A stretch of DNA of 64,000 bases from Amphiscolops sp. MND2022 (lineage: Eukaryota): contig OZ076409.1 of assembly GCA_964187785.1 (NCBI GenBank), positions 72,170,001 to 72,234,000 on the forward strand, written 5' to 3'. A program made the translations under genes and the position numbers. Position 1 is the stretch's first letter. Each line of letters begins with the position of its first letter. Below, piece by piece: positions 2,297 to 63,860 of the stretch. Below the pieces are notes generated by a model, which saw nothing but the letters and a program-made list of their open reading frames with translations, searched no databases and had not been told where the DNA came from.

Positions 2297-2465
2297 ACAA
2301 CGCCACATAGCGTTCCGACGCCCACCGTCTGTGGGCATGCCGAGGCATGCCCTTCGACGACGTATGCCAAATGAGCCATACCCGCACTCTGGAGTGCGGT
2401 AGCGGCTAGGTGGGCGGGGGTAATTCCCCAACAAAAAAATCGGCCGGCGGGTTGGGTCCTGCCGG
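2297..2465 (+). other. Conserved junction module: terminal arm, GCTAGGTG, head stem-loops (representative copy)
   Basis: ACAACGCC..., palindrome 2333-2352, TTCGACGACG, hairpin CCGCACTC-tg-GAGTGCGG, GCTAGGTG 2405-2412, GGGG-taatt-CCCC, CCGGCGGG-ttgggt-CCTGCCGG 2444-2465. Confidence 0.92.
2333..2352. promoter_or_regulatory. 20-bp palindrome GGGCATGCCGAGGCATGCCC, probable protein-binding site (29 copies)
   Basis: Present before every junction except 31431. It matches the p53-family consensus RRRCWWGYYY x2 at 19 of 20 positions. Function is inferred. Confidence 0.5.
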
Positions 2466-5400
2466 ACGTCAAATAGTGTGAAACATCCAGTAGGAAACGG
2501 CGACATTTATCAGCGATTTTAAAATTGAACCGTTAGAATTCGGACTTGGAGTGCATGCGGCCCCAAAATGCCCATACGAATCGAAGTTCCTGCTGACGTT
2601 AAGCGATAAAAACACTTTATAAAAAGTTATGGCCCATTTTACGTTCACTTAGAGAGGTAAAATGAGGAAAATTTTAACAAAGTTGCTGATAACTCAAAAT
2701 ACATTAATTTTTGGACTTTGACTGTGAAACAAGCTTGGAACCTTCATTTCGTGGCTGTGGCAATGCACTGAACACAAAAGATGTAAAGTTTTCACATTTT
2801 TTGAAAATTCGACATTTTTGAATTTTTTTCACTACTATCAGTACACTATATGTCAAAAACACCTCAGAAAAAAATTTTTATTTGCTTAAATTTAGAAACC
2901 TCGGTATCCATGGTTTCCGTCAGTACCTACTCGCAGCCAAACACTCAACAAATTGCATCCAATGTGAAAATAAAATTTTTTTCGGGGTCATAAGCGTTTC
3001 ACAAGGATTTCTCAACTTAGTATTAATTTACAAAATGGTCATTTTGAACACAATATTTTCATCGAGGCTTGTCGGCTATAGCCTTAATGTTCTAGAACGG
3101 TCCCACTGGCAACGTAGGAACCATTTATAGTAATAGAAAGTTTTAAAAAAATTTTTTCATCCGGTCTTCAGTCATTTTTCAGTCATTCGGAACTTAACTT
3201 AGAAAAATTTCGACCAAAATACCCATTTTTTGTCAGGTCGAAAATTCAAATTCAGATTTTTAAGCAAAATTATTAACTCTGACGTAACCCATGGGGCCCA
3301 TGATACTCAAAACAACAATTGACACTGGTATCAATGGCTCCAATAACATATGAGTCGCGATAAGACGTTATTTTGAGCAATACGTCTCAATTGAGGTAAA
3401 GATCTCGCAAGCCAGCGATCACTGTGAAATGTGATTTCATCAAAAATTTACTCATTTTTGTCAATCACTATGTGCACAGAATGCGTAGGGTGCGTTTCAG
3501 CACTATAATGAGGTATTTGAAAGCATCGAGTTGCTCAAGGGGTGGTATGAGACCTTTTTGTCCCATATACTTCTGTATTTTCCAAAATTTTTAGCCCAAT
3601 ATCTGGAAATACAAACATGACAAAATACTTTCAACTACTTTATTCAAAGGTTACAATATAGATGAACACTGTGGTTGATCAGAAACTTTCATCTCTTTCG
3701 TTTTCCGAAATATTTCCCTTCGCATGTGTTACATTTATAGCAGAAAAAAAATCGATACAGAAAAATACGCTATTTTGCTAATATAGAATCGCAATGATTG
3801 TGCCTAAAAACTCTTTAAACACTTCTAACGCGACCTTACGCACCCAAAAAGATCGAAAAGGCTATTCACAATGGTGACTTGTGCTCTTTCAACGATCCTG
3901 ACTGAACAATTTTCGCAAATTATTCAAGTACCTGTTAACTGAATCTCGTGATAGCCTTTTAAGTTGGCCTTGTGTCAACTTGGGAAGGCTATCACATCAA
4001 AAAATTTTCAACAAAAATACTTTTTGTTTATTGAAAATGACAGTCGATATATAATTTCGTGATTCTATGCTACCGTTAGTACCTTCCATTAAGTCACCTG
4101 ACGATTGCATTCAGTCTTTGATAAATACCTATGAACTCGAAGTCATATTTATAAATTTTTTGCTAAAAATAAACATCAAAATTATCCAAATTTATTAAAA
4201 TTGAGTCTTTATTGTTTTTGTTTTTCTTTTTCTACTGTTATTAGGCCCATCAACTTCCTACAGCCACGCTCTCTGTCATACTGTACAACGCCACATAGTG
4301 TTGCGACGTGCACGGTCTGTGGGCATGCCGAGGCATGCCCTTCGACGACGTATGCCGAATACCGCGGGCCTACGCCCGCGCTCCCCGGCTAGGTGGGCGG
4401 GGGTAATTCCCCAACAAAAATTACGGCCGGCGGGTTGGGTCCTGCCGGACGTTCAAATAGCGCGAAGCATCTAGTAGAAAACAAGGAGTCCCGAAACAGC
4501 GATTTTAAAATTGAACCGTTAGAATTTGGTTTTAGATTGCATGCGGCCCTAAAATCCCCATACGAATGGAAGTTCCTGCTGGCGTTAAGCGATTGAAATA
4601 ATATATAAAAAGTTATGGCCCATTTTTGGGTCACCGAGAAGGTCAAAATGAAGAAAATTTTAACTAAGTTGCTGATAACTCAAAATGTGTTAATTTTTGG
4701 ACTTTGACTGTGAAACAAGCTTGGAACCTTCATTTCTTGGCTGTGGCATTGCACTGAACACAAAAGATGTAAAGTTTTCACATTTTTTGAAAATTCGACA
4801 TTTTTGAATTTTTTTTCACTACTATCAGTACACTATATGTCAAAAACACCTCTGAAAAATTTTTTTATTTGCTTAAATTTAGAAACCTCGGTATCCATGG
4901 TTTCCGTCAGTACCTACTCGCTCCCAAACACTCAACAGTTTGCATCCAATGTGAAAATAAAATTTTTTTCGAGGTCTTAGGTGTTTCACAAGGATTTCTC
5001 AACTTAGTATCAATTTACAAATTGGTCATTTTGAACACATTATTTTCATCGAAGCGTGTCATATACCGCCCTAATGCTCACGAACGGGCCTACTGGCAAC
5101 GTTGGAACAATTTATCGTAATAGAAAGTTAAAAAAATTTTTTCACCCGGTCTTCAGTCATTTTTCACACATTCGGAACTTAACTTAGAAAAATTTCAACC
5201 GAAAAACCCATTTTTTGTCAGGTCGAAAATTCAAAGTCAGCTTTTTAAGCAAAATTATCAACTCTGACGTAACCAGTGGGGCCCATGATACTCAAAACAA
5301 CGATTGGGGTTGGTACCAATGGCTCCAATAACATATGAGTCGCGATAAAGCGTTATTTTGAGCAATATGTCTCAATTGAGGTAAAGATCTCGCAAGCCAG

Positions 5401-6381: not shown

Positions 6382-9300
6382 GTGGGCGGGGGTAATTCCC
6401 CAACTAAAAATTCGGCCGGCGGGTCGGGTCCTGCCGGCCGTCCAAAATCAAAATCCTACTAGTAGAAAACGGCATGTCAAACGAGCTATTTTTTTATTTA
6501 ACCGTTAGAATTTGGGTTTAGATTGCATGCGGCCATGAAATGGCCATACGAATTGAAGTTCCTGCTGACGTTTTGCGATTGAAACACTTTATAAAAAGTT
6601 ATGGCCAATTTGTCAGTCACCTAGAAGGGCAAAATGAGGAAAATTTTAACAAAGTCGCTGATATCTCAAAATGTGTTAATTTTTGGACTTTGACTGTGAA
6701 ACAAGCTTGGAACCTTCATTTCGTGGCTGTGGCATTGCACTGAACACAAAAGCTGTAAAGTTTTCACATTTTTTGAAAATTCGACATTTTTGAAATTTCT
6801 TTCACTACCATCAGTACCCCATATGTCAAAAACACCTCAGAAAAAAATTTTTATTTGCTTTAAATTGGAAACCTTGGTATCCATGGTTTCTGTCGGAACC
6901 TACTCGCAGCCAAACACCCAACAGTTTGCATCCAATGTGAAATAAAAAATTTTTTCGAGGTCATAAGCGTTTCACAAGGTTTTCATGATTTAGTATTAAA
7001 TTACATAGTGGTCATTTTAAACATAAAATTTTGGTCCAGGCATGTCGGATATAGTCTGAATGCTCACGAACGGTCCTACTGGCAACGTATGAACCATTTA
7101 TAGTAATAAAAAGTATTAAAAAAATTTTTTCACCCGGTCTTCAGTCATTTTTCAGACATTCGGAACTTAACTTAGAAAATTTTCGAACCAAATACCCATT
7201 TTTTGTCAGGTCGAAAATTGAAATTCAGCTAATAAAGCAAAATTTTTTACTCTGACGTAACCAGTGGGGTCCATGATACTCAAAAATACGATTGGGACTG
7301 GTACCAATGGCTCCTATATCATATGAGCCGCGATAAGATGTTATTTCGAGCAATACGTCTCAATTGAGGTAAACATCTCGCAAGCCTGGGATCACAGTGA
7401 ATTGTAATTTTATCAAAATTTTACTCATTTTTGTCAATCACTATGTGCACAGAGTGCGTAGGGGGAGTTGTAGCACTATAATGAGGTTTTTGAAGGCATC
7501 GGGTTGCTCAAGGGGTGGTATGAGACATTTTTTTCCTATATACTACTGTATTTTCCAAAACTTTTAGCCCATTATCTGCAAAAACTAACTTGACAAAATA
7601 CTTTGAGTTACTCTACTCAAAGCTTAGAACATAGATGAACACTGTGGTTGATCAGAAACTATTTACTATTTTGTTTTTAGAAAAAACTGCCTTGCATGTG
7701 TTACACTAGTGGCAGGAAAAATACCAGTAGCTCCAAAAATCACAAATTTGGACGGACAGACTTGCAATGATGCAAAGCAAAAACGTTTCAACAACTTCTG
7801 ACGCCACTTCTTTTACCCAAGAGGTTCGAAAACGCCATTAACAAGGCTGACATTCGCAATAAATAAGATCGAGGTCCATTTACTAACACTTAGGTTTCAA
7901 ATTTGTTTCTGAGAAACCCATTTTTGTCAGGTCGCAATTTCAAATTTAATTTGGGAAGCAAAATTTTTCACTCTGAAGCAAACCGCTGGGCCCAAATTAC
8001 TCAAAAACAACAAAAAGACTATCACCATATGCTCTAATAACATATGAGATGCGACAGTATGCTTTTAACACAAAAACTCTCATCCGAAGTAAACATGTTG
8101 AAAGCCTTGAATCACCGTGAGAAGTGATTTCATCAAAAAATATTTCTTTTTCGTCAATCACTATATACACAAAACCCGTTGTGTTAGTTTCAGCCGTGAA
8201 ATGAGGTTCTACCGTAATATGGGTTGCTCAAGGTGTTGTATAAGAGAAAATCGTCCTCTTTTCTACTAACTTCTTCAAATATTTCGACCCTTTGTCACAC
8301 GAAGTTAAAATTCAAAATCTCTTTGAATTGTTTCTTTAGGTTGGGATGAAGTGGTAGAACAATAACTTTGATCCAAGAATGCTAGTATTGGTGTTTGGAC
8401 CATGTTTGGATGAACAAATCGCAAAATCATGAAAAATTTGTTTCTTTTTTTGGTTATTTTGGCAGTACTAAAAATGTTAGCTGACAAATAATTTTTTCGA
8501 TAGCACCATTGGATTCCGCTCAAAAAGTTGGTTATATGACATGTGTAATAACGCCGTATCTTTTCAATTTAAATATATTTAAAAAGCCAACTTTTTTGAC
8601 CAAAATCCTAAAAATCATACCATTTCCTAAAAAATTTCAAATGCACCCCATTTGACGTATAACAATAGCACAGAAAACTATCATATACCGATCAACTCTA
8701 CTCTCATTGTGGATTATTAGCATTTTGTTTTGAACGAATTTTGATGGATATTAAAAAATTTTGAACCCTCCAAATATGGGCCAAAATTACACGAAAAAAT
8801 TGACCTTAAAATTTTAAAATGTCAAAAAATCATCAAAACTACAGCTTCTTGGGGTTCTATCAACTCCACGTGGTCCACAGAGTACGCTAAAACAGGTTTT
8901 ACCCGTTTTTGAGCAATATGTGAAAAAGCCGACATTTTTGGGAAAGAAAAACATCCCATTTCCTAAAAAAATTCAATTGCACGCCATTTGCCGTATGAGA
9001 ATAGCACGGAAAACTATCACATACCGATCAACTCTACTTTTATTGTAGATGATTAAAAATTAGTTTAAAACAAATTTTGACGGATATTAAAAAATTTTAA
9101 ACCCTTAAAAAATGGGCCAAAATTACACAAAAAAATTGACCTTAAAATTTTAAAATGTCACAAAATCATCAAAACCACAGCTTCTTGGGGTTCTATCAAC
9201 TCCACGTGGTCCACAGAGTACGCTAAAACAGGTTTTACCCGTTTTTGAGCAATATGTGAAAAAGCCGACATTTTTGGGGAAGAAAAAATAGGCATTTCCT

Positions 9301-11130
9301 AAAAAAATCAAATGCACGCCATTTGCCGTATAAGAATAGCACAGAAAACTATCATATACCGATCAACTCTACTCCCATTGTAGATTATTAGAATTTTATT
9401 TTGAATGATTTTTGATGGTTATTAAAAAATTTTGAGCCCCCCAAAAGCGGGCCAAAATTACACGAAAAAATTGACCTTAAAATTTTAAAATGTCAAATAA
9501 TCATCGAAACCACAGCTTCTTGGGGTTCTATCCACTCCACATGGCCCACAGAGTATGCCAAACCAGGTTTTGCGCGTTTTTGAGCAATATTTGAGAAAGC
9601 CGAGTTTTTTGGGGAAGAAAAACATAACATTTCCTAATAAAATTCAAATGCACGCCATTTGGCGTATGACAATAGCACAGAAAACTATCACATACTAATC
9701 AACTCTACTCTCTTTGTAGATCACCAGAGTTTTGCTTAGAATAAATTTTGATGAATATTTGTAAATTTTAAACCCTCCTAATATGGGCCAAAATCACACG
9801 GAAAAATTGACCGTAAGGTATTAAAATGTCAGAAATTCATCAAAACCACAGCTTCTTGGGGTTCTATCATTTCTATATGACTTTCAGAGTATACCAAACA
9901 AGGTATTAACATTGGGCGATAATTAAAAACACCAATTTTATTTTAGAAGAAAACCATAATAAGTTCAATATAAGAAGTGAATCATTCCATATATATACCC
10001 TGTCTTATATTTTAAATTAGCGATAATATATATACTTGATGTTTTTTGAAAGTGAGCTTCATAAGTGGTTGAGATGTGATAATACGTAAATGGATTCCAA
10101 GTTTCATCGAAATGTCAATGGAATACGTCCAATCAACTTCAATCTTAACAATTAGATAACAAAAAACCTAAGTACATTCCATCTCCCCATCGGGGAGATG
10201 AGAATGTACTTTTCAAAAACCAAAAACTTAGATGTTTTTTTTTGTAACACTTACTGTAACTGCTGAAATGATGAAAGAATAATTATGCTTCTAATAACTC
10301 CATGATTTTTTGCTTCAGCATTTTTTTTGCAGAACAAAACCATCAGACATATTTTTCGCAGTTAAGTTCGATCGTATTACCCAGTGAACAAAGGTATGGA
10401 AGGATGTTTACAAGTTGTTTCAAAACTTTCCCGCCTTCCAAAATAATGAAACGTCTACACAACCAAGATAGCAAATGAATGAATGCGGAATGCATCTTAT
10501 TAGATAAGATAAATAACGTGTAGAACTTACCTTTATCTGAAGTTGACGTTGATTTATGATCTTTAGAGGATAGTTTGATTTTTGACCATAATAGTGGGAA
10601 ACTAATTATTATATGAATGATGGCGTGGAAAGCGTTCAGAAATTGTAGTATTTTGGATTCGAGCATGTATGCGTGGGTTCCTTTGGTGGCGTTAGCTTAG
10701 TGTACATGATGGAAGTTTTCGATCTGTTATGATTAATTTTACTCACGAGTCTTTGTTTTTCCTATTTTTTTGCCATTAAGTACATTCATTCTATCCCCTT
10801 TTCTGAGAATGTACGTTTGTCAAATGACTGTCATCCAAATTTTGCATTCCCGAAGAGTTTAAATACATAACACGTGTTTAGCGTTTCCAAATCACAACCG
10901 AGTAACATTCTATTTTTTTTTCTCAAAATTGATAATGGTTTTGATTTTGGTGTCTTCTACTTTCATCATCCATCATAACAACCACCTTACCATGTCTCTC
11001 GCTTGTCTTCATTTTACAACGCCACATAGTGTAGCGACGCCCACAGTCTGTGGGCATGCCGAGGCATGCCCTTCGACGACGTATGCCAAATTTAGCGTTA
11101 GCCCGCGGTCACTACCGCGGTAGCAGCTAG
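6382..11130 (+). repeat. Family C unit (4749 bp)
   Basis: A-like head, diverged internal duplication, four 336-bp subrepeats (~8610-9950), type II hairpin 10171-10210, terminal arm. Confidence 0.92.
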
Positions 11131-14100
11131 GTGGGCGGGGGTAATTCCCCAACAAAAATTACGGCCGGCGGGTTGGGTCCTGCCGGACGTTCAAATAGCG
11201 CGAAGCATCTAGTAGAAAACAAGGAGTCCTGAAACAGCGATTTTAAAATTGAACCGTTAGAATTTGGTTTTAGATTGCATGCGGCCCTAAAATCCCCATA
11301 CGAATGGAAGTTCCTGCTGGCGTTAAGCGATTGAAATAATATATAAAAAGTTATGGCCCATTTTTGGGTCACCGAGAAGGTCAAAATGAAGAAAATTTTA
11401 ACTAAGTTGCTGATAACTCAAAATGTGTTAATTTTTGGACTTTGACTGTGAAACAAGCTTGGAACCTTCATTTCGTGGCTGTGGCATTGCACTGAACACA
11501 AAAGATGTAAAGTTTTCACATTTTTTGAAAATTCGACATTTTTGAATTTTTTTTCACTACTATCAGTACACTATATGTCAAAAATACCTCTGAAAAATTT
11601 TTTTATTTGCTTAAATTTAGAAACCTCGGTATCCATGGTTTCCGTCAGTACCTACTCGCTGCCAAACACTCAACAGTTTGCATCCAATGTGAAAATAAAA
11701 TTTTTTTCGAGGTCTTAGGTGTTTCACAAGGATTTCTCAACTTAGTATCAATTTACAAATTGGTCATTTTGAACACATTATTTTCATCGAAGCGTGTCAT
11801 ATACCGCGCTAATGCTCACGAACGGGCCTACTGGCAACGTTGGGACCATTTATAGTAATAAAAAGTTTTAAAAAAATTTTTTCACCCCGTCTTCAGTCAT
11901 TTTACACACTTTCGGAACTTAACTTAGAAAAATTTCGACCAAAATATCCATTTTTTGTCAGGTCGAAAAATCAAATTCAGATTTTTAAGCAAAATTATTA
12001 ACTCTGACGTAACCCATGGGGCCCATGATACTCAAACCAACGATTGACACTGGTATCAATGGCTCCAATAACATATGAGTCGCGAAAAGACGTTATTTTG
12101 AGCATTACGTCTCAATTGAGGTAAAGATCTTGCAAGCCAGCGATCACTGTGAAATGTAATTTCATCAAAAATTTACTCTTTTTTGTCAATCACTATGTGC
12201 ACAGAATGCGTAGGGTGCGTTTCAGCACTATAATGAGGTTTTTGAAGGCATCGAGTTGCTCAAGGGGTGGTATGAGACACTTTTGTCCCATATACTACTG
12301 TATTTTCCAAAATTTTTAGCCCAATATCTGGAAATACAAACTTGACAAAATACTTTCAACTACTTTATTCAAAGGTTACAATATAGATGAACACTGTGGT
12401 TGATCAGAAACTTTCATCTCTTTCGTTTTCCGAAATATTTCCCTTCGCATGTGTTACATTCGTAGCAGAAAAAAAAATCGAAACTGAAAAATACGCAATT
12501 TTGCTAATATAGAATCGCAATGATTGTGCCTAAAAACTCTTTAAACACTTCTAACGCAACCTTACGCACCCAAAATGATCGAAAATGCTATTCACAATGG
12601 TGACATGTGCTCTTTCTACGATCCTGGCTGGACAAGGTTTGCATATTTTTCAAGTACCTGTCAGCTAAATCTTGTGATAGCCTTTTCAGTTGGCCTTGTG
12701 TCAACTTGGGAAGGCTATCACATCAAAAAACCATCAACAAAAATAATTTTTGTTTATTGGATCTTACAGTCGATACTTTCTTTCGTGATTTTATACTACC
12801 GTTAGTATATTTCATCAGGTCACCTTACGATTGCATTCAGTCTTTGATAAAAACCTATGAACTCAAAGTCACATTTATATATTTTTTTGCCAGAAAAAAA
12901 CCTCAGAAATATCTAAAATATATAAAATAGAGTCTTTAACATTTTTACGTTTCAAGTTTTTGCCGTTCTTAGGCCAATCAACGTCCTAGAGCCACATCCA
13001 GTCATACTGTACAACGCCACATAGTGTTGCGACGTGCAGAGTCTGTGGGCATGCCGAGGCATGCCCTTCGACGACGTATGCCGAATACCGCGGGCCTACG
13101 CCCGCGCTCCCCGGCTAGGTGGGCGGGGGTAATTCCCCAACAAAAATTACGGCCGGCGGGTTGGGTCCTGCCGGACGTCAAATAGCAAAGAATATCTAGT
13201 AGGAAACGGCGACACAGAATCGCGATTTTTAAATCTAACCACAATTTTTTGGACTTGGAGTGCATGCGGCCCTGAAATGCCCATACGAATCGAAGTTCCT
13301 GCTGACATTAAGCGATTGAAATAATATATAAAAAGTTATGGCCCATTTTTCACTCACAAAGAAGGGTAAAATGAGGAAATTTTTAACAAAGTCGCTGATA
13401 ACTCAAAATGTGTTAATTTTTGGACATTGACTGTGAAACAAGCTCGGAACCTTCATTTCGTGGCTGTGGCATTGCACTGAACACAAAAGATGTAAAGTTT
13501 TTACATTTTTTGAAAATTCGAAACTTTTGAAATTTTTTTCACTACTATCAGTACCCCATATGTCAAAAACGCCTCAGAAAAAATTTTTTATTTGCTTTAA
13601 ATTGGAAACCTTGGTATCCATGGTTTCTGTCGGATCCTACTCGCAGTCAAACACCCAACAGTTTGCATCCAATGTGGAAATAAAAATTTTTTCGGGGTCA
13701 TAAGCGTTTCACAAGGATTTCTCAACTTAGTTTCAATTTACAAATTGGTCACATTGAACACATTATTTTCATCGAAGCGCGTCAGATACCGCCCTAAAGC
13801 TCACGAACGGTCCTACTGGCAACGTAGCAACCATTTATAGTAATATAAAAGATTAAAAAAATTTTTTCACCCGGTCTTCAGTCATTTTTCAGTCATTCGG
13901 AACTTAACTTAGAAAAATTTCGACCAAAATACCCATTTTTTGTCAGGTCGAAAAATCAAATTCAGATTTTTAGGCAAAATTATTAACTCTGACGTAACTC
14001 ATGGGGCCCATGATACTCAAAACAACGATTGACACTGGTATCAATGGCTCCAATAACATATGAGTCGCGATCGGACGTTATTTTGAGCAATACGTCTCAA

Positions 14101-15103
14101 TTGAGGTAAAGATCTCGCAAGCCAGCGATCACTGTCAAATGTGATTTCATCAAAAATTTACTCATTTTTGTCAATCATTATGTGCACAGAATGCGTAGGG
14201 TGCGTTTCAGCACTATAATGAGATTTTTGAATGCATCGAGTTGCTCAAGGGGTGGTACGAGTCATTTTTGTCCCATATACTACTGTATTTTCCAAAATTT
14301 TTAGCCCAATATCTGGAAATACAAACTTGACAAAATACTTTCAACTACTTTATTCAAAGGTTACAATATAGATGAACACTGTGGTTGATCAGAAACTTTC
14401 ATCTCTTTCGTTTTCCGAAATATTTTCCTTCGCATGTGTTATATTTGTATCAGAAAAAAAATCGAAACTAAAAAATACGCTATTTTGCTAATATAGAATC
14501 GCAACGATTGTGCCTAAAAACTCTTTAAACACTTCTAACGCGACTTTACGCACCCAAAATGATCGAAAATGCTATTCACAATGGTGACATGTGCTCTTTC
14601 AACGATCCTGGTTGGACAAGGTTTGCATATTTTTCAAGTACCTGTCAGCTGAATCTTGTGATAGCCTTTTAAGTTGGCCTTGTGTCAACTTGGGAAGGCT
14701 ATCACATCAAACAACCATCAACAAAAATAATTTTTGTTTATTGGATATTACAGTTGATACCTTATTTCGTGATTCTATACTACCGTTAGTATATTCCATG
14801 AGGTCACCTTACGATTGCATTCAGACTTTGATGAAAACCTATGAACTCAAAGTCACATTTATATATTTTTTGCCCAAAAAAATCATCAAAAACATCTAAT
14901 ACATATAAAATTGAGTCTTTAACTTTTTTACGTTTCAAGTTTCTGCCGTTATTAGGCCAATCAACTTCCTACAGCCACGCTCTCTGTCATACTGTACAAC
15001 GCCACATAGTGTTGCGACGTGCACGGTCTGTGGGCATGCCGAGGCATGCCCTTCGACGACGTATGCCGAATACCGCGGGCCTACGCCCGCGCTCCCCGGC
15101 TAG
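11131..15103 (+). repeat. Two family A units (11131-13118, 13119-15103)
   Basis: Junctions 11126, 13114 and 15099; collinear with the other A units. Confidence 0.93.
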
Positions 15104-51391: not shown

Positions 51392-54300
51392 GTGCGGGGG
51401 GGTAACCCCAACAAATATATTGGAGGATTCGGGTAGGGTCCTGAATCCGATTTTAACTCTAATAGCTATCGATAGGAAATCTTGCAAAAATTTCGGGATC
51501 TCGTGATCTAACCATAGGATTTTAAAGTTGGAGCGGCCCCCACCAGATTTTCCGAAAATTAGCGCCCCCCACCGGGTTCCATACCCCGGGAAATTTTTTT
51601 CTGGCCACACGGGCGACCGTTAGGGGGTCATTTTAGGGGTAAAATTCATATTGGGCCACATAACTTTTTTTCTGTTGATTTAAAACTTTGGAACCCTGCT
51701 AAAAGTTTCTTGACCGTGTTGCAGGGGCCCCGAAGGTCCAAACCAAATTTTTCTATCTTGAAGCTATCTCCAAGTACCCCCCCGCTCAAACCGTTATTTT
51801 TCCGGAAACGCAGGTTTTTGACCCGGAAGGAGTCGTCTGAGCGCGGGGTCGTTAGGTGATGTATTGGGGACGGCCTTGAGACGAAGTGGGGGACAAGTAG
51901 TTTGCCAACCTCAATTTACCCCCCGGACGGGAAATGACCGTTATATGAGCGTGAAAAATGCCCCCCTCCACGTTTTACCGCTATTTCCGGTGTGAAGGAG
52001 TGGGAGTAGCGCGTCGGGTGTTATATAACAAAAGTAGGTTTAGACAAGGACCTATCGGAAACATGTAGTTTGGGACCCCCTGGACCAACCCGTTAGCGGG
52101 AAATGGGGCTTCCGCCTCCTTTTTTTAGTGCTAAAACCGTAAAATGGGCATTGAGGGGTAAATATCTCGTGAACGCGTGGAGCAATCGTGTCCATCACTA
52201 CTACAAGGTTTCATACCCATGATATGGTGCCTTCAGGGGGGCAAACAGATTTCCGCTATCTATCACCGTTACCGACTTGGCCCCCCAGCCTAACCGCTAT
52301 GTGACCGGAAATGTCACTTTTTGAGCCCAAAGGGTCGGTCCCAGCCGGGGAACGTTAGGTAACTTATTGTAGTACTCAATGAGACGAGTTGGGGGATATA
52401 GTTTTAGTCACCCCCCGTTACCCCTTGGGACCGGAAATGACCGTTATGTGGGTAAAATTGCAATTTTTATACTTTTTCAAGTGTATTTAGGTGCGGAAGG
52501 AGTGGTAATAGGTGCTTGGACACTATATGAGGTAAGGGAGGACGTGAGGCGTGCATTCGGAAATAACCGTTATGTTGACCCTAAAGTCCCCCTGGTACCG
52601 TAAACGACCGGAAATGGTCAAATTTTGTGTCTATTGGGTACAAATGTTTTGTATTTTGTAGATAAAAGTATCTATTAGGTGTTTCGACGGTCTACAGTAG
52701 TGAACATAGTCATGAAACCTTGTGGGGGGTAACGGTATATAGCACCGGAAGTCAAAACGTTGGAGACAGGATAGGTTTTTTGGTTTTAAAATGTCTTTCG
52801 GCGTAATTTTTCCGACTCTTGTGGACTATTTTTAAAAATTAAAGTTTTTCCATATAGTTTCAGAGACTCCGAAACCTCAACCAACATAACCGTTACCTTA
52901 TGATAGCCTTTCAAGTTGGCCTGGTGTCAACTTGGAAGCGCTATCCTTCTGAAATCGTTAATCAAGAGTGTTTTTGGGTAGGTATATATTGCATTAGTAC
53001 CAATTAGAGCTTCATCAACAGTGTATCAACGACAAAAACTATGCCGTCATGATTCCGTTATTAGAATCATAGTGAGCAAATTGTTGAAAAAATGGTTTTT
53101 TCCATACAAAATGTGTCCTAAATGCCAGGCAACCTATTTACCTAACAAATGGTATTAATTGGAATGTTTGTAACAGATTTATAAAAGTTCAAATTGATAA
53201 TTACATTTCATTATGGAAGCTGAAACGTCATATTTTAGTTTAATTAACGTCAACGCCACACACTTTACATCAACGCACACCGTCTGTGGGCATGCCGAGG
53301 CATGCCCTTCGACGACGTATGACAAATCCATATCAAACGACGCCCGTACATCCCGGGCTAGGTGCGGGGGGGAAACCCCATCCCTTATCTTGGAGGATTC
53401 GGGTAGGGTCCTGAATCCGAGTTCAGTGCCGCCAGCTCTCAGTAGAAATCTGGGCATTTTTTTGCGATCTCGTGATCTAACCATAGGATTTTAAAGTTGG
53501 AGCGGCCCCCACCAGATTTTCCAAAGTTATTCGCCCCCCACCGGGTTCCAGCGTGATTGAAATATTCTGACGGGGTACACGGGCGACCGTTAGGGGTCAT
53601 TTTGGGGGTAAAATTTATATCCGGTCGCATAACTTTTTTCCTGTTGGATTAAAACTTTGGGACCCTGCTAAAAGTTTCTTGACCGTGTTGCGGGGGCTCC
53701 GGAGGTCCAAACCAAATTTTTCTATCTTGAAGCTATCTCCAAGTACCCCCCCGCCCAAACCGTTATTTTTCCGGAAACGCAGGTTTTTGACCCGGAAGGA
53801 GTCGTCTGAGCGCGGGGTCGTTAGGTGATGTATTGGGGACGGCCTTGAGACGAAGCGGGGGATATATAGTTTGCCGACCCCAGTTTACCCCCCGGACGGG
53901 AAATGACCGTTATATGAGCGGGAAAAATGCCCCCCTCCACGTTTTACCGCTATTTCCGGTGTGAAGGAGTGGGAGTAGCGCTTCGGGTGCCATATATCAA
54001 AAATAGGTTTAGACAAGGACCTATCGGAAACATGTAGTTTGGGACCCCCTGGTCCAACCCGTTAGCGAGAAATGGGGCTTCCGCCTCCTTTTTTTACTGC
54101 TAAAACCGTAAAATGGGCGTTGAGGGGTAAATATCTCGTGAACGCGTGGAGCAATCGTGTCCATCACTACTACAAGGTTTCATACCCATGATATGGTGCC
54201 TTCAGGGGGGCAAACAGATTTCCGCTATCTATCACCGTTACCGACTTGGCCCCCCAGCCTAACCGCTATGTGACCGGAAATGTCACTTTTTGAGCCCAAA

Positions 54301-57300
54301 GGGTCGGTCCCAGCCGGGGAACGTTAGGTAACTTATTGTAGTACTCAATGAGACGAGTTGGGGGATATAGTTTCAGTCAACCCCCGTTACCCCTTGGGAC
54401 CGGAAATGACCGTTATGTGGGTAAATTTGCAATTTTTATACTCTTTGAAGTGTATTTAGGTGCGGAAGGAGTGGTAATAGGTGCTTGGACACTATATGAT
54501 GTAATGGAGGTCGTGAGGAGAGCATTCGGAAATAACCGTTATGTTGACCCCAAAGTCCCCCTGGTACCGTTAACGACCGGAAATGGCCAAATTTTGTGTC
54601 TATTGGGTACAAATGTTTGGTATTTTATGGATAAAAGTACCTGGAAGGTGTTTTAAAGGCCTCCAGAAGTGAACATAGTCATGAAACCTTGTGGGGGGTA
54701 ACGGTATATAGCACCGGAAGTCCAAACCGTTGGTCACAGAATAGGTTTTTTGGTTTCAATATGTCTTTAGGCATAGTTTTGTGGGTTGAATCGTCATAAT
54801 ATCAACTAATACGGACTTTTTTCGGAAATAAAATTTTTTCACATTAGTTTCAGGGACCTCCAATGCTTCAGTCAAAATAACCGTTACATTTTGATAGCCT
54901 TTCAAGTTGACCTGGTGTCAACTTGGAAGGGCTATCCTTCTAAAATCGTTAATCAACAGTGTTTTTGGGTAGGTATATGTTGCATTAGTACCAATTAGAG
55001 CTTCATCAACAGTTTGCCAACGGCAAAAACGATGTCGTGATAATTCCGTTATAAAAATATTAGTTAACAAATTGTTTTCAAAGTTGATTTTTTCCATTAA
55101 AAATGTGTCCTAATGCCACCAAATTGAATAAAATAATAAATGGTATTGACTAAAACTAAATAACAATGAAAAAGAAGATCAACATTTTTATTAGGTCTCA
55201 TTATGGAAGCAGAAACCTCACGTTTTAACTTAATTAACGTCAACGCCACATACTTTACATCAACGCCCACCGTCTGTGGGCATGCCGAGGCATGCCCTTC
55301 GACGACGTATACCAAACAACCTCCATATCTACACCCACCCGCGGTAGCAGCTAGGTGCGGGGGGGAAACCCCAACAAAATTTTTGGAGGATTCGGGTAGG
55401 GTCCTGAATCCGATTTTAACTCTAATAGCTATCGATAGGAAATCTTGCAAAAATTTCGGGATCTCGTGATCTAACCATAGGATTTTAAAGTTGGAGCGGC
55501 CCCCACCAGATTTTCCAAAGTTATTCGCCCCCCACCGGGTTCCAGCGTGACTGAAATATTTTGACGGGGTACACGGGCGACCGTTAGGGGTCATTTTGGG
55601 GGTAAAATTTATAAAAGTTCGCATAACTTTTTTCCTGTTGGATTAAAACTTTGGGACCCTGCTAAAAGTTTCTTGACCGTGTTGCGGGGGCTCCGGAGGT
55701 CCAAACCAAATTTTTCTATCTTGAAGCTATCTCCAAGTACCCCCCCGCCCAAACCGTTATTTTTCCGGAAACGCAGGTTTTTGACCCGGAAGGAGTCGTC
55801 TGAGCGCGGGGTCGTTAGGTGATGTATTGGGGACGGCCTTGCGACGAAGCGGGGGATATATAGTTTGCCGACCCCAGTTTACCCCCCGCACGGGAAATGA
55901 CCGTTATATGAGCGGGAAAAATGCCCCCCTCCACGTTTTACCGCTATTTCCGGTGTGAAGGAGTGGGAGTAGCGCTTCGGGTGTTATATAACAAAAATAG
56001 GTTTAGACAAGGACCTATCGGAAACATGTAGTTTGGGACCCCCTGGACCAACCCGTTAGCGGGAAATGGGGCTTCCGCCTCCTTTTTTTACTGCTAAAAC
56101 CGTAAAATGGGCATTGAGGGGTAAATATCTCGTGAACGCGTGGAGCAATCGTGTCCATCACTACTACAAGGTTTCATACCCATGATATGGTGCCTTCAGG
56201 GGGGCAAACAGATTTCCGCTATCTATCACCGTTACCGACTTGGCCCCCCAGCCTAACCGCTATGTGACCGGAAATGTCACTTTTTGAGCCCAAAGGGTCG
56301 GTCTCAGCCAGGGAACGTTAGGTAACTTATTGTAGTACTCATTGAGACGAGTTGGGGGATATAGTTTCAGTCAACCCCCGTTACCCCTTGGGACCGGAAA
56401 TGACCGTTATGTGGGTAAATTTGCATTTTTTATACTCTTTGAAGTGCATTTATGTGCGGAATGAGTGGTAATAGGTGCTTGGACACTATATGAGGTAAGG
56501 GAGGACGTGAGGCGAGCATTCAAAAATAACCGTTATGTTGACCCCAAAGTCCCCCTGGTACCGGAAGTGACCGGAATTTGTCAAATTTTGTGTTTTTAGG
56601 GTACAAATGTTTAGTATTTTGTAGATAAAAGTATCTATTAGGTGTTTCGACGGTCTGCAATAGTGAACATAGTCATGAAACCTTGTGGGGGGTAACGGGG
56701 TATTTAGCACCGGAAGTCCAAACCGTTGGACACAGGATAGGTTTTTGGTTTGAAAATGTCTTTCGGCGTACTTTTGTCGACTATTATGGACTATTATTTA
56801 AAATTAAAGTTTTTCCATATAGTTTCAGAGACTCCGAAACCTCAACCAACATAACCGTTACATTTTGATAGCCTTTCAAGTTGGCCTGGTGTCAACTTGG
56901 AAGCGCTATCCTTCTGAAATCGTTAATCAAGAGTGTTTTTGGGTAGGTATATATTGCATTAGTACCAATTAGAGCTTCATCAACAGTGTATCAACGACAA
57001 AAACTATGCCGTCATGATTCCGTTATCAGAATCATAGTGAGCAAATTGTTGAAAAAAATGGTTTTTTCCATACAAAATGTGTCCTAAATGCCAGGAAACC
57101 TATTTACTTAAAAAATGGTATTGATTGGAATGTATGTAACAGATTTATAAAAGTTCAAATTGATTATTACGTTTCATTATGGAAACTGAAACGTAATATT
57201 TTAGTTTAATTAACGTCAACGCCACACACTTTACATCAACGCCCACCGTCTGTGGGCATGCCGAGGCATGCCCTTCGACGACGTATACCAAATACATACC

Positions 57301-60300
57301 CAAACGACGCCCGTACATCCCGGGCTAGGTGCGGGGGGGTAACCCCAACTTTTTTCTTGGAGGAATCGGGTAGGGTCCTGATTCCGAGCTTAGTGCCGCC
57401 AGCTATCGTTAAAAACCCATACCTTTTAAACCCGATCTCGGGAACTAACCACGCCCCTTCTTTAATTTTTTGGCCCCCACTCACTTTTTGAGAGTAGATC
57501 GCCCCCCACTGGGTTCCAAGTTGGGCAAAAATGGAGGTCATGGGTAACGGGGACCGTTAAGGGGTAACTCAGGGGGTAAAATTTATTTTTTGCGTCATAT
57601 CTTTTCCCCCCGTGGATTTAGCGCTTCCGGTCAGCAGACAAAACCTCATGTACGTGATAAGGGGCCTCCGTAGGTCCAAACAAAATTTTTCTATCATGCA
57701 CCGTTACGGACTTGCCCCCCCGGCCCAACCGTTATTTTGCCGGAAATTGCCTTTTTTGACAGGGAAGGAGTCGTCTGAGCACGGAGTCGTTTGGTAATGT
57801 TTTGTAGTGCATCTGGAGACGTGTTGGGGGACATGTAGTTTGCCGACCCCAGTTTACCCCTCGGACGGGAAATGACCGTTATGTGAGTTTTAAAAATGCC
57901 CCCCTTCAATTTTCCCCGCAATTTCCGGTGTGAAGGAGTGGGAGTAGGGTGTCGGGTGCCATATATCAAAAGTAGGTTTAGACAAGGACCAACCGGAAAC
58001 ATGTGGTTTCGGACCCCCTGACCCAACCCGTTAGCCGCTATTAGGGTGATCGCCTCCTTTTTTTGCTGTTAAAACCGGAAAACGGGCATTGAGGGGTAAA
58101 TATCTCGTGAACGCGTGGAGCAATCGTGTCCATCACTACTACAAGGTTTCATACCCATGATATGGTGCCTTCAGGGGGGCAAACAGATTACCGCTATCTA
58201 TCACCGTTACCGACTTGGCCCCCCAGCCTAACCGCTATGTGACCGGAAATTGCACTTTTTGAGCCCAAAGGGTCGATCCTAGCCGGGCAACGATAGGTAA
58301 CATATTGTAGTACTCATTGAGACGAGTTGGGGGATCTAGTTTCAGTCACCCCCGTTACCCCTTGAGACCGGAAATGACCGTTATGTGAGTAGAATTGCAA
58401 TTTTTATACCTTTTGAAGGGCATTTAGAAGCGGAAGGAATGGTAATAGGTGCTTGGACACTATATGATGTAATGGAGGTCGTGAGGAGAGCATTCGGAAG
58501 TAACCGTTACGTTGACCCCAAAGTCCCCCTGGTACCGTTAACAACCGGAAATGGCCAGATTTTGTGTTTGTAGGGTACAAATGTTTGGTATTTTATGGAT
58601 AAAAGTACCTGGAAGGTGTTTTAAAGGCCTCCAGAAGTGAACATAGTCAAGAAACTTTGTGGGGGGTAACGGTATATAGCACCGGAAGTCCAAACCGTTA
58701 GTTACAGAATAGGTTTTTTGGTTTCAAAATGTCTTTAGGCGTAGTTTTGTGGGTGGAATCGTCATAATATCAACTAATACGGACTTTTTTCGGAAATAAA
58801 ATTTTTTCACATTAGTTTCAGGGACCTCCAATGTTTCAGTCAACATAACCGTTACATTTTGATAGCCTTTCAAGTTGGCCTGGTGTCAACTTGGAAGGGC
58901 TATCCTTCTAAAATCGTTAATCAAGAGTGTTTTTGGGTAGGTATATGTTGCATTAGTACCAATTAGAGCTTCATCAACAGTTTGCCAACGGCAAAAACGA
59001 TGTCGTGATAATTCCGTTATAAGAATATTAATTAACAAATTGTTTACAAAGTTGATTTTTTTCATTTAAAATGTGTCCTAATGCCACCAAATTGAATAAA
59101 ATAATAAATGGTATTGACTAAAACTACATAACATTGAAAAAGAACATCAACATTTTTATTAGGTCTCATTATGGAAGCTGAAACCTCACGTTTTAACTTG
59201 ATTAACGTCAACGCCACATACTTTACATCAACGCCCACCGTCTGTGGGCATGCCGAGGCATGCCCTTCGACGACGTATACCAAACAATCTCCATATCTAC
59301 ACCCGATTGCGGTAGCAGCTAGGTGCGGGGGGGAAACCCCAACAAAATATTTGGAGGATTCGGGTAGGGTCCTGAATCCGAGTTCAGTGCTGCCAGCTTT
59401 CGTTAAGAAAATTTGGATAGGATTCGGGATCTCGTGATCTAACCATAGGATTTTAAAGTTGGAGCGGCCCCCACCAGATTTTCCGAAAATTAGCGCCCCC
59501 CACCGGGTTCCATACCCCGGAAAATTTTTTTCTGGCCACACGGGCGACCGTTAGGGGGTCATTTTAGGGGTAAAATTCATATTGGGCCACATAACTTTTT
59601 TTCTGTTGATTTAAAACTTTGGGACCCTGCTAAAAGTTTCTTGGCCGTGTTGCAGGGGCCCCGGAGGTCCAAACCAAATTTTTCTATCTTGAAGCTATCT
59701 CCAAGTACCCCCCCGCCCAAAACGTTATTTTTCCGGAAACGCAGGTTTTTGACCCGGAAGGAGTCGTCGGAGCGCGGGGTCGTTAGGTGATGTATTGGGG
59801 ACGGCCTTGAGACGAAGTGGGGGACATGCAGTTTGCCAACCCCAGTTTACCCCCCGGACGGGAAATGACCGTTATATGAGCGGGAAAAATGCCCCCCTCC
59901 ACGTTTTACCGCTATTTCCGGTGTGAAGGAGTGGGAGTAGCGCGTCGGGTGCCATATATCAAAAGTAGGTTTAAACAAGGAACTATCGGAAACATGTGGT
60001 TTGGGACCCCCTGGACCAACCCGTTAGCAGGAAATGGGGCTTCCGCCTCCTTTTTTTACGGTTAAAACCGGAAAATGGGCATTGAGGGGTAAATATCTCG
60101 TGAACGCGTGGAGCTACGGTGTCCATCACTACTACAAGGTTTCATACCCATGATATGGTGCCTTCAGGGGGGCAAACAGATTTCCGCTATCTATCACCGT
60201 TACCGACTTGGCCCCCCAGCCTAACCGCTATGTGACCGGAAATGTCACTTTTTGAGCCCAAAGGGTCGGTCCCAGCCGGGGAACGTTAGGTAACTTATTG

Positions 60301-61297
60301 TAGTACTCAATGAGACGAGTTGGGGGACATAGTTTCAGTCACCCCCCGTTACCCCTTGTGACCGGAAATGACCGTTATGTGGGTAAATTTGCAAGTTTTA
60401 TACTTTTTCAAGTGTATTTATTTGCGGAAGGAGTGGTAATAGGTGCTTGGACACTATATGATGATGGGGAGGACGTGAGGCGAGCATTCGAAAATAACCG
60501 TTATGTTGACCCCAAAGTCCCCCTGGTACCGGAAGAGACCGGAAATTGTCAAATTTTGTGTTTTTAGGGTACAAATGTTTGGTGTTTTATGGATTAAAGT
60601 ACAGGTTAGGTGTTTTCACGGTCTGCAGTAGTGAACATAGTTATGAAACCTTGTGGGGGGTTACGGTATATAGCACCGGAAGTCCAAAACGTTGGAGACA
60701 GGTTAGGTTTTTTGGTTTTAAAATGTCTTTCAGCGTACTTTTGTCCACTATTATGAACTATTTTTAAAAATTAAAGTTTTTCCATATAGTTTCAGAGACT
60801 CTCAAACCTCAACCAACATAACCGTTACATTTTGATAGCCTTTCAAGTTGGCCTGGTGTCAACTTGGAAGGGCTATCCTTCAAAAATCATTAATCAAGTG
60901 TGTTTTTGAGTATGTTTGTTTTACTTTAGAATCAATTAGAGCTTCAAGAAAAGTTTGCCAACGGTAAAAACTATGTCGTGATGATTCCGTTATTAGAATA
61001 ATAGTTAACAAAATATTGATAAAGTTGATTTTTTACATTTCAAATGTGTCCTAAATGCCAGAAAACCTCTTTACCAAACAAATGGTATTGATTGAATTGT
61101 ATATTACAGCTAATAAAAGTTCAAATTGAATATTAGGTTTCATTATGGAAGCTGAAATGTCATATTATAGTTTCATTAACGTCAACGCCACATACTTTAC
61201 ATCAACGCCCACCGTCTGTGGGCATGCCGAGGCATGCCCTTCGACGACGTATGCCAAATTCCTCCAACACAACACCCTCGAGCGCGGTAGCAGCTAG
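51392..61297 (+). repeat. Five family B units (51392-53361, 53362-55354, 55355-57328, 57329-59322, 59323-61297)
   Basis: Start GTGCGGGGGGG. The GC-richer body is not alignable by eye to A, but the terminal arm and type I hairpin are shared; lengths 1970-1994 bp. Confidence 0.93.
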
Positions 61298-63860
61298 GTG
61301 GCCGTGTCTTTTCGACGTGCTTTTGCATTGAGGAGTGGGTAGGGCCCCGCGACGACCTAGAAGAATTGGATGCTCACCGAAACGTGCAGAATTCTACGAG
61401 ATCTCATAGTTTGAGCCATACGATTTTTCTGAAATTTGGCATGTGGCCTGGAATTGGTGAGTAGGTAAAACGTGTAGAAGGTAATTTTTCCCAAATTCCA
61501 CTGTGAGAGGAGATATGGGCAAATAACGGACCCAAAAATGGGGAAAATGCACATTTTTCAAGTTTGTCAGCCAATATCTCTTTTCCAGGTGCCCGTAGCG
61601 TTCCGCACGTGGACATCAATATTGCTCAGCGCTGTTGGAGGAGTGCGTGGACAAATTTTGGTTTAAATCGGACTTAAACTTGACGAGAAATTAACGGTTT
61701 TTTGGGCGTTTCCGGGGTAAATTTTTTAACGGTCCAGCTTATCTTTGCCATTTTTTCGAAAATGTACATGCCTAAAGGCCTCCCCCTGGCCGAATATACT
61801 CCCAGCAAACCCATTTGGCCCTAAATACGGAGTTTCAGCGTTCCAGCATTCCGGGGCGGAAAGTTGTGGGACTTGGAAAAATTTCAAAATTTTTTCAAAA
61901 TTTTTTTTTCCCGTTTTCCGGGCCCCCAATGAAGGGGAACGACCCCCCAACCAGTATTTTGAGTGAATTCATGTGGAACGCCCATGTTTGGAGGAGAAAA
62001 ATGCCGTTTAGCACATCTTTTTTATCTTAACTTGACATTGACTTATTTCGTTTTGAATGTGATGTTAGGATATATGAAGCATGTTAAAAGTTGAAGTTTT
62101 GAGTCTTTATCTCATCGGAAAACCATTGAGATACAAGCAGTTTTGCTAAAAACGATTTTCATTGTAGGTTAGCAGAGTATTAGTACACTTTGATGTCATT
62201 TGAGTATATTTTTCTTCTATATAATAACTGTTTTTATGTATTTATTCCAATTTATCTCATCTTTTAACATCAAGCAGTTGAGTACATTTCATCTCCCTTT
62301 CGGGGGAGATGAGAATGTACTCGCTAAAAACCTAATGCTATGGCGCCAATGTTTGGATGGGAAGTTTTCTATGCTTTGAAAAAAGTTATTTTTAATTACT
62401 TGATTTTTTAAAACAATAATTAACATGAAGTACATTACTTGCTCCTACTACTACCACCATACATCTCTAACGTCAACGCCCCCTGCTTGCATCAACGCCC
62501 CATCGTCCGTGGGCATGCCGAGGCATGCCCTTCGACGACGTATGCCAAATGCCCAGTGCCACGCAGTCTTTTCCCGCTAGGTGGCCGTGTCTTTTCGACG
62601 TGCTTTTGCATTGAGGAGTGGGTAGGGCCCCGCGACGACCTAGAAGAATTGGATGCTCACCGAAACGTGCAGAATTCTACGAGATCTCATAGTTTGAGCC
62701 ATACGATTTTTCTGAAATTTGGCATGTGGCCTGGAATTGGTGAGTAGGTAAAACGTGTAGAAGGTAATTTTTCCCAAATTCCACTGTGAGAGGAGATATG
62801 GGCAAATAACGGACCCAAAAATGGCAAAAATGCACATTTTTCAACTTTGTCAGCCAATATCTCTTTTCCAGGTGCCCATAGCGTTCCGCACGTGGACGTC
62901 AATATTGCTCAGCGCTGTTGGAGGAGTGCGTGGACAAATTTTGGTTTGAATCGGACTGAAACTTGACGAGAAATTAACGGTTTTTTGGGCGTTTCCGGGG
63001 TAAATTTTTTAACGGTCCAGCTTATCTTTGCCATTTTTTCGAAAATGTACATGCCTAAAGGCCTCCCCCTGGCCGAATTTACTCCCAGCAAACCCATTTG
63101 GCCCTAAATACGGAGTTTCAGCGTTCCAGCATTCCGGGGCGGAAAGTTGTGGGACTTGGAAAAATTTCAAAATTTTTTCAAAATTTTTTTTTCCCGTTTT
63201 CCGGGCCCCCAATGAAGGGGAACGACCCCCCAACCAGTATTTTGAGTGAATTCATGTGGAACGCCCATGTTTGGAGGAGAAAAATGCCGTTTAGCACATA
63301 TTTTTATCTTAACTTGACATTGACTTATGACGTTTTGAATGTGATGTTAGGATATATGAAGCATGTTAAAAGTTGAAGTTTTGAGTCTTTATCTCATCGG
63401 AAAACCATTGAGATACAAGCAGTTTTGCTAAAAACGATTTTCATTGTAGGTTAGCAGAGTATTAGTACACTTTGATGTCATTTGAGTATTTTTTTCTTCT
63501 ATATAATAACTGTTTTTATGTATTTATTCCAATTTATCTCATCTTTTAACATCAAGCAGTTGAGTACATTTCATCTCCCTTTCGGGGGAGATGAGAATGT
63601 ACTCGCTAAAAACCTAATGCTATGGCGCCAATGTTTGGATGGGAAGTTTTCTATGCTTTGAAAAAAGTTATTTTTAATTACTTGATTTTTTAAAACAATA
63701 ATTAACATGAAGTACATTACTTGCTCCTACTACTACCACCATACATCTCTAACGTCAACGCCCCCTGCTTGCATCAACGCCCACCGTCCGTGGGCATGCC
63801 GAGGCATGCCCTTCGACGACGTATGCCAAATGCCCAGTGCCACGCAGTCATTATCGCTAG
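61298..63860 (+). repeat. Two near-identical tandem family E units (61298-62580, 62581-63860)
   Basis: Direct duplicates at offset ~1283; type II hairpins 62280-62322 and 63562-63604. Confidence 0.93.

Follow-up and report, generated by a model that had tools for sequence, protein, structure and literature searches.

An internal hairpin at a proportional position in Helitron-like elements forming mixed arrays in Amphiscolops sp.

Background

The window analysed here, 64,000 nt of contig OZ076409.1 of Amphiscolops sp. MND2022 (positions 72,170,001 to 72,234,000; C1:72.17-72.23 Mb of a 1.07-Gb assembly), is in its whole length a single mixed head-to-tail array of repeat units on the plus strand, in which the longest open frames do not exceed 181 aa. 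It raises the question of why unit families with dissimilar bodies keep the same few lengths. A first-pass annotation had listed five families, A to E, with lengths near 1.28, 1.98 and 4.76 kb, and had proposed that length rather than sequence is selected. Judged by their sequence, the units are almost certainly gene-less, non-autonomous derivatives of a divergent Helitron-like family. The best explanation overall, with a probability of roughly 0.6, is that they are Helitron derivatives which insert at CTNG, stack head to tail and carry a hairpin at four-fifths of their length, the position of which is likely kept for copying and would thereby freeze length.

Units were delimited by cutting at the junction CTAG/GTG, which yielded 30 junctions and 29 whole units in the window and reproduced the length ranges listed earlier for families A, B, C, D and E; a sixth family, an armless 1070-bp unit (30366-31435), had been missed. 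Each window unit had a GTG start, a 5' hairpin and a CTAG end, and a conserved 3' arm of about 120 bp was carried by 28 of the 29 whole units. A Helitron domain search located many frames of 2.2-2.9 thousand aa inside the arrays, within units of 12-27 kb, here called helpers, whose head and kinds of 3' end are those of the small units. The non-autonomous copies share both ends with helpers. Small families start with the 5' end of particular helpers: that of a 27,044-bp RepHel-coding helper had 3498 bp in common with a variant of family C (86%), and the profile of family E1 matched the first 757 bp of a 15,581-bp RepHel element.

Position of the internal hairpin

Every small family carried one internal hairpin of 38-50 nt, belonging to one of five unrelated types, with fold z-scores of -2.5 to -7.2 in six examples from the window. 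It was present in 29 of 29 window units. Measured from the 3' end, its centre lay at 0.200-0.238 of the length in 49 of 56 clusters; the seven exceptional clusters comprised five composites or mis-cuts, one weak call and one C variant with an extra repeat. In a fit to 16 non-autonomous lineages, the distance from the 3' end equalled 0.1988 x length + 30.6 (r2 0.997), and the same line matched 11 helpers chosen as conforming, 10 within 0.4% of length and one within 1%. The prediction for helpers was written down ahead of testing, and the top hairpin was scored blind in whole-element scans. It fell at 0.19-0.21 in 2 of 8, 6 of 10 and 2 of 4 bounded helpers (10 of 22 in total), the second of these results having p about 1e-8 if the helpers are independent. 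The rule was also used to predict 5' ends: for four of the seven helpers that were bounded at the 3' end alone, the predicted start fell within the available DNA, and in three of these four (27.0, 23.1 and 21.4 kb) a junction was found within 481-872 bp of it.

Helper hairpins vary in sequence by lineage and are placed after RepHel, after the SGNH-like open reading frame (ORF) or after the RPA-like ORF; these differences in sequence and gene context argue against a role tied to one transcript. Misplaced copies had decayed. In family C, the H2-type hairpin about 950 nt from the end was intact, whereas the copy at the position used by the 1.28-kb families was degraded (median 52.8 versus 11.7 bits, and -18.1 versus -4.7 kcal/mol, for 45 and 47 hits), and a misplaced copy in a 17.6-kb helper had likewise decayed. 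Compared with A, the 3116-bp family had gained about 900 bp on its 5' side against about 225 bp on its 3' side.

Several results weigh against a strict rule. Twelve of the 22 bounded helpers failed the blind test; in six of these a hairpin at 0.202-0.209 was recovered in zone-restricted scans only. A missed helper of 25,076 bp had its top hairpin at 0.196 and unsure ends, another of 20,218 bp had a weak, second-ranked hairpin only, that of 14,150 bp was ambiguous, and one with a broken ORF had no hairpin. Two helpers lay off the line, one of 12,811 bp at 0.214, with a shortened ORF, and one of 18,814 bp at 0.163, which is about 3.3 kb longer than its sister. Among the small elements, the hairpin of a 5791-bp unit lay at 0.111 and that of a 5081-bp C variant at 0.183, and the hairpin was missing from one of four solo copies. 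The two sides of the 1.39-kb class vary inversely (3' side 323-352, total 1381-1407), so that total length seems tighter than the ratio alone requires. Furthermore, the lineages entering the fits are not independent, and no strand-skew switch was found at the hairpin. As to the folding strand, the plus strand was more stable in 37 and the minus strand in 17 of the 56 clusters, which are not independent of one another. With these points taken into account, the ratio of hairpin position to length is very probably under selection; the rule is demonstrated in one genome only.

The 5791-bp unit (C10:36348113-36353903), of which there is one whole instance, contains five copies of a 902-bp three-family mosaic module, and the 3116-bp family contains two copies of the same mosaic.

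That unrelated hairpins keep to one proportional rule across a 25-fold range of sizes amounts to a design principle, which the literature searched did not describe for any transposon. The rule gives an exact prediction for any construct, namely a hairpin distance from the 3' end of 0.199 x length + 31 nt.

Length classes and their maintenance

A total of 382 units of 0.9-6 kb was cut from the window and 1.4 Mb around known arrays on seven chromosomes, a non-random sample aimed at these arrays. Five bands accounted for 365 of them: 1031-1080 (36 units), 1253-1318 (110), 1376-1407 (16), 1969-2017 (153) and 4716-4809 bp (50). The remaining 17 included lengths of 2379, 2792/2798, 3071-3072, 3116, 4894/4898, 5024 and 5081 bp and five composites or mis-cuts. 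The distribution is discrete beyond the window, with about ten classes rather than the three of the first-pass annotation. No regular or nucleosome ladder fitted, the best periods being 183 bp for total length (p = 0.56) and 178.5 bp for the 5' part (p = 0.68). Near-equal lengths across lineages with unrelated hairpins (1070/1072, 3071/3116 and 4724/4763) numbered three against 0.9 expected (p = 0.058), a signal of absolute length marginally beyond chance.

These discrete classes, the three near-equal lengths and the inverse variation within the 1.39-kb class speak for encapsidated or otherwise size-selected circles, in which absolute length would be the selected trait. Such selection is very improbable here, since the helpers span a variable 12-27 kb, the ten or so classes form no ladder, and no capsid-like ORF occurred among ORFs of at least 150 aa in 18 helpers, where the sole shared family was RPA-like; an unlinked helper virus was outside that search. 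With accessory ORFs that are RPA-like and SGNH-like, the packaging limit suggested earlier is not borne out. The broader suggestion that length is selected rather than sequence held in part: length is conserved more than sequence, but what stays constant across 1-27 kb is a ratio, not a size.

The earlier observation that the bodies of A and B cannot be aligned was confirmed with local shuffles (middle z = 1.3-1.4; hairpin-to-arm spacer z = -0.8). Only the head, the arm and a single internal motif could be aligned between the two families, and matches to the family HMMs were limited to the first ~150 bp and the part from ~1530 on. The middles of D and E, also said to be unalignable, did not align either (z = -0.3 and 1.1). 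Full-length homology was absent for A/B and D/E and present for E1/E2, which were collinear (64%; middle z = 29). Five 1.28-kb families are likewise collinear, as are the three 1.39-kb families, and equal length is, on this sequence evidence, partly plain inheritance (E1/E2 and most 1.28-kb families). Family C, listed as a size class of its own at 4749-4764 bp, has the lengths given, but is a mosaic of A, repeats and E that shares the A start and the E end, hence no independent family. A 2015-bp chimeric family (C1:38.075-38.125 Mb) takes its first 415 bp from the 1.28-kb class and the remainder from B, which suggests template switches at matching positions.

Per 1000 mismatches, units had 40-79 indel events and control repeats of the same genome 76, whereas indels of at least 10 bp numbered 0.25-1.7 versus 6.3 (4-25 times rarer in units) and those of at least 20 bp 0-0.04 versus 3.0. 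The control is small (55-75 alignments, 55 for these counts) and sets dead repeats against active lineages. Net length drift was mostly 2-6 times lower in units; simulated neutral drift amounted to 18-27 bp net per root-kb, compared with 1-12 in unit families and 18 for B versus its chimeric relative. Compensating indels were considered and rejected: the first estimate had relied on merging nearby gaps, raw counts match the control, and net-to-gross ratios range from 0.2 to 2.5 around ~1, so the signal is a scarcity of long indels, not compensation. The view that the bodies act partly as stuffer agrees with the unalignable A/B and D/E middles and with the rarity of indels of 10 bp or more, much of the body behaving as spacer.

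Each class might instead be a clonal burst from a master copy, with no selection on length and matches arising by descent or chance. The collinear families and a short-indel rate per substitution equal to the control accord with this, and length peaks are normal for non-autonomous Helitrons (PMC12001565). It accounts neither for one proportional rule over 1-27 kb with unrelated hairpins nor for the blind predictions, the decayed misplaced copies and the scarce long indels, and the simulated neutral drift exceeds that observed in unit families; it is largely refuted and would now be a very surprising outcome.

The hairpin ratio is probably the main cause of the length classes. A one-sided long indel would break the ratio and be purged, short indels drifting slowly; with long indels removed, short ones would shift a 2-kb unit by about 1% despite sequence turnover, and the classes would remain discrete. 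New classes could come from infrequent growth on both sides at about 4:1 or, alternatively, from a hairpin-to-end module being joined to a helper 5' end cut to fit. The equal length of A and B may reflect either old common descent with full spacer turnover or a shared hairpin-to-end spacing of 420-440 nt on different helper 5' ends cut to fit.

Candidate mechanisms for the ratio

A spacing that scales with length suggests two processes whose speeds stand in a fixed ratio. In a tentative scheme, to which we give slightly less than even odds and which is drawn by analogy, the hairpin would fold on the peeled strand and start second-strand synthesis; the second strand would run back over 80% of the element as the helicase peels the last 20%, and the two processes, at a fixed 4:1 speed ratio, would end together. 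Helraiser requires double-stranded donors, and its peeled strand has been proposed to undergo lagging-strand synthesis (PMC5876387). The step that turns a Helitron's peeled single strand into duplex DNA is open (PMC5876387), and a cis element scaling with element length gives a direct handle on it. Against the timing scheme, it does not clearly explain why a late hairpin should be harmful.

Two machines might otherwise leave the joined ends of a circle in opposite directions at 4:1 speeds and meet, stop or be resolved at the hairpin, possibly via a GIY-YIG domain. A two-sided constraint of about 3% fits this arrangement, any hairpin sequence would serve, and a C-terminal GIY-YIG-like domain is present (21.1 bits, just below the cut-off of 22.6; 31.3 in a relative). 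Since there is no skew switch at the hairpin and some array RepHel frames, short ones of 2180-2207 aa, have no GIY-YIG motif match, such a meeting point is unlikely.

In a third possibility, the hairpin would be a hinge, with the 5' 80% packed, for example in nucleosomes, and the 3' 20% extended, the ends meeting only at about 4:1. AA/TT periodicity of 10.0-10.5 bp in 21 representatives had a power of 3.1-3.3 in the 5' part and 1.1-1.6 in the 3' part, which favours this fold slightly although the contrast is weakly sampled because 3' parts are short; the lengths of internal repeats (336, 502, 720 and 902 bp) also come close to multiples of 168 or 180. However, much of the 5' part is coding in helpers, neither total nor 5'-part length follows the nucleosome ladder sought above, and flexible DNA ends are able to meet without length matching, and we regard the fold as quite doubtful. 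The missing skew switch supports none of the timing, meeting-point and fold models.

Helper proteins and clade

The long helper protein consists of Rep, Pif1 and the GIY-YIG-like C-terminal domain, with scores above cut-off for PF14214 (40.3 bits) and PF05970 (42.8 bits). Of 18 array proteins, 17-18 contained the HxH, YxxxY and Walker A motifs. The two tyrosines and the helicase of the helper exclude identity with Replitrons, which have a Y1 Rep without helicase (PMC10288648). An accessory ORF of about 350 aa in 16 of 18 helpers was OB-fold/RPA-like (predicted fold pLDDT 81; OB/RPA matches with best E 3e-4 and TM-scores of 0.2-0.3), and an ORF of about 210 aa was SGNH-like in one language-model search. 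The SGNH/GDSL-like ORF follows RepHel in some helpers and apparently precedes it in others, and the helper at C1:24.0 Mb has 76-bp tandem repeats after RepHel.

The 18 array transposases, 27-81% identical (median 31%), formed one group (support 98/98) nested in a broader set of 47 GIY-YIG-bearing rows, a Perkinsus protein among them; HLE1 rows were excluded from this tree as too short. In a separate tree of 200 helicase residues, 46 GIY-YIG-clade rows stood on a branch of 1.49 with support 100, apart from three HLE1-type and five HLE2-type rows of the same genome, the alignment being short and the type of each anchor taken from Pfam alone. Within this one genome, no fewer than 18 transposase lineages, as little as 27% identical, retain open frames of 2.2-2.9 thousand aa and a single end structure, implying, as far as sequence can tell, long coexistence with cross-compatible ends.

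Two scans for relatives outside this genome were negative, and one further scan returned two overlapping metagenome loci. This distant relative has an RPA-like ORF (E 3e-25 to the profile) on the strand opposite RepHel, a GTG-plus-hairpin motif at an end of the contig and, 18.7 kb from it, a single strong hairpin, at a fraction of at least 0.16, the far end lying off the contig.

Target site and growth of the arrays

Three empty-site comparisons showed insertion after CTNG without target-site duplication. The exact one concerned a solo copy in a young repeat, with three of three identical empty paralogues, in which the element lies directly after CTTG and itself ends in CTTG; two diverged empty paralogues, for another solo copy and for a whole ~16-kb mixed array, agreed. 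The tetramer that flanks both sides of an element occurs once in the empty site, and those preceding five first units were CTTG, CTTG, CTGG, CTAG and CTCG. Because each unit terminates in a CTNG-type tetramer, its 3' end is a potential target, and it is likely that copies land on each other's ends, building mixed arrays.

Satellite DNA spread by unequal exchange was considered and rejected, neighbours not being most alike: none of 83 adjacent same-cluster pairs was at least 99% identical (median 87%). The nearest relative lay in another block for 23 of 25 units and on another chromosome for 15. A mild same-cluster excess existed among neighbours (91 versus 73.4 of 327). From the sequences, we infer that arrays grow by one-at-a-time insertion with a strong preference for element ends.

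Exact arm matches numbered 4733 genome-wide and zero in a reversed control; reading the first 100 matches listed revealed six solo copies. Large arrays were located at C2 102.0-103.9 Mb (of 103.9), C3 2.3-3.9 Mb, and C1 3.5-3.6 and 70.5-76.5 Mb, some near contig ends and in one orientation over long stretches, with helpers clustered in array sub-regions. Three shallow contig sets from sequencing runs contained scattered pieces only. Megabase repeat blocks (~4,700 arms here), which annotators would likely call satellite DNA, can grow via single insertions at element ends, and an ability to insert as much as 27 kb site-selectively and without a scar makes the family interesting for genome engineering.

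In the widest reading, which we hold to be only a little better than an even bet, these elements would be a previously undescribed third clade of eukaryotic rolling-circle transposons (Rep-Pif1-GIY-YIG, with IS91-like tetramer targeting) that measure their own length via a sequence-independent hairpin at four-fifths and a fixed 4:1 race of two DNA-copying processes, a rule that would shape all helpers and parasites in size, between 1 and 27 kb, and enable them to build megabase arrays on their own ends.

Organization of the window

The mixed array of non-autonomous units covers positions 1-64000 on the plus strand, as do all features below, and is part of the multi-megabase array at C1 ~70.5-76.5 Mb. 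Junctions lie at 2410, 4393, 6382, 11131, 13119, 15104, 16383, 18373, 20361, 22343, 24331, 29095, 30366, 31436, 32715, 34703, 36689, 38681, 40673, 42661, 47422, 49414, 51392, 53362, 55355, 57329, 59323, 61298, 62581 and 63861.

Family A has 15 units (1978-1992 bp), exemplified by A1 (2410-4392), the others starting at 4393, 11131, 13119, 16383, 18373, 20361, 22343, 32715, 34703, 36689, 38681, 40673, 47422 and 49414, of which that at 36689 is diverged (73-76%). The 5' head of A1 (2410-2470) consists of GTG and a hairpin around a conserved GGG-T-[AT]-GGG-T-CC core; the stem letters flanking the core vary among families with complementarity retained, and the fold z was -2.9 in A and -0.5 in E1. 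The internal hairpin of A1, type H1 (3950-3993; z -5.2), is centred 421 nt from the 3' end (0.212), and H1 was found at 0.209-0.224 in 15 of 15 A and 5 of 5 B units. The 3' arm (4275-4392) comprises an 18-bp palindrome, a GC-rich terminal hairpin and the terminal CTAG. Five B units of 1970-1994 bp, with 44-45% GC and an internal duplication of ~502 bp, occupy 51392-61297, with H1 at 52902, 54893, 56867, 58861 and 60834 (0.221-0.224).

Family C units are located at 6382-11130, 24331-29094 and 42661-47421 (4749, 4764 and 4761 bp), with a partial unit at 1-2409. An A-like first ~1490 bp is followed by a ~720-bp duplication, four 336-bp repeats and an E-like last ~750 bp. Intact H2 lies at 10172-10209 (0.198, z -7.2), 28129-28167, 46449-46487 and 1444-1482, and the decayed second copy at 10780-10814 (z -1.0), where 1.28-kb units carry H2, ~350-400 nt from the end. 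Although 26.7 kb apart, two C units are 99% identical in their 3' halves (1-2416 and 26686-29101), against 83-88% for other C pairs in the window, and this identity seems to be a recent copy or conversion.

The two D units, each of 1279 bp, span 15104-16382 and 31436-32714, with H2 at 16077-16115 and 32409-32447 (0.224). The single E1 unit of 1271 bp (29095-30365) has H2 at 30070-30108 (0.218), and two E2 units of 1283 and 1280 bp (61298-63860) have it at 62282 and 63564 (0.217-0.218). The 1070-bp unit of the sixth family carries hairpin type H3 at 31172-31213 (0.227, z -4.1). This unit, several further families and helpers, for example at C1:73.475-73.505 Mb, lack the palindromic arm and have other 3' ends in the same arrays.

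Comparison with known systems

Tandem Helitron arrays and length peaks are already in print. In the literature searched, which left Repbase and closed journals outside, no description was found of this clade, its targeting or a length-scaled hairpin; the supplements of PMC11417382, as described there, hold unclassified HLEs from 19 genomes, which may include this clade.

Canonical Helitrons (HLE1, Helraiser) likewise have a two-tyrosine HUH Rep fused to a Pif1-like helicase, an RPA-like accessory ORF, a 3' hairpin with CTRR end, no target duplication, and gene-less copies sharing both ends (PMC11417382, PMC5876387). The 3' hairpin and CTRR end occurred here also, with CTAG in 352 and CTGG in 30 of the 382 units, a count partly imposed by the junction pattern, and CTTG in one solo copy. 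Unlike HLE1, which has 5' TC and inserts between A and T, the units start with GTG and a hairpin and insert after CTNG, and the transposase, with its C-terminal GIY-YIG, stands on a separate branch of the helicase tree and belongs to elements following the internal hairpin rule. The match to Helraiser was limited to the helicase start (E 6e-7).

HLE2 (Helentron/Helitron2, DINE-1-like) resembles the present elements in having a hairpin at each end, in the internal tandem repeats of some units, in the OTU of some relatives and, for one plant family, in a captured GIY-YIG (PMC11417382). The helper had no match to DUF6570, which is an HLE2 marker found in five of five HLE2-type proteins of the same genome; a long branch separates the two in the trees, and the empty sites showed no insertion between two T residues. 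In the ends inspected, short asymmetric terminal inverted repeats were not noticed, although no search was aimed at them.

Paramecium third-clade Helitrons also fall outside HLE1 and HLE2, with strong target specificity, oriented arrays and satellites inside; compared by description, they target telomeric repeats, and the text of that report makes no mention of GIY (PMC13085455). Tandem Helitron arrays of plants, bats and Xenopus and subtelomeric repeats of Hydractinia share head-to-tail junctions and large local accumulations (PMC5876387, PMC12001565, PMC5148889, PMC11934779). As described in those reports they are concatemers or repeats of one element, whereas here families are mixed and neighbours never 99% identical.

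Encapsidated satellites and multipartite ssDNA viruses differ in that the helpers here had no capsid among the ORFs searched, unlinked helper viruses lying outside that search, and sizes run from 1 to 27 kb. As regards kinetoplast-type minicircles, which are free circles with a conserved origin block and small-RNA genes, the units here are chromosomal insertions, and an Rfam scan of 14000-34000 at E 0.5 returned zero matches. We know of no single-strand origin whose position scales with replicon length across unrelated sequences. At the mitochondrial light-strand origin, the second strand begins at a hairpin formed by the displaced strand. A hairpin so placed does the same in rolling-circle plasmids, whose single-strand origins served as the working analogy (PMC5714925).

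The IS91 family shares HUH rolling-circle transposition, no duplication and oriented insertion at a tetranucleotide, its target CTTG resembling its terminal cleavage site CTCG (PMC13181058). The present elements are eukaryotic and helicase-fused, reach 12-27 kb and form megabase arrays, and the likeness is one of description. The system works like a Helitron and targets like IS91, and in ends, target and clade it is neither HLE1 nor HLE2.

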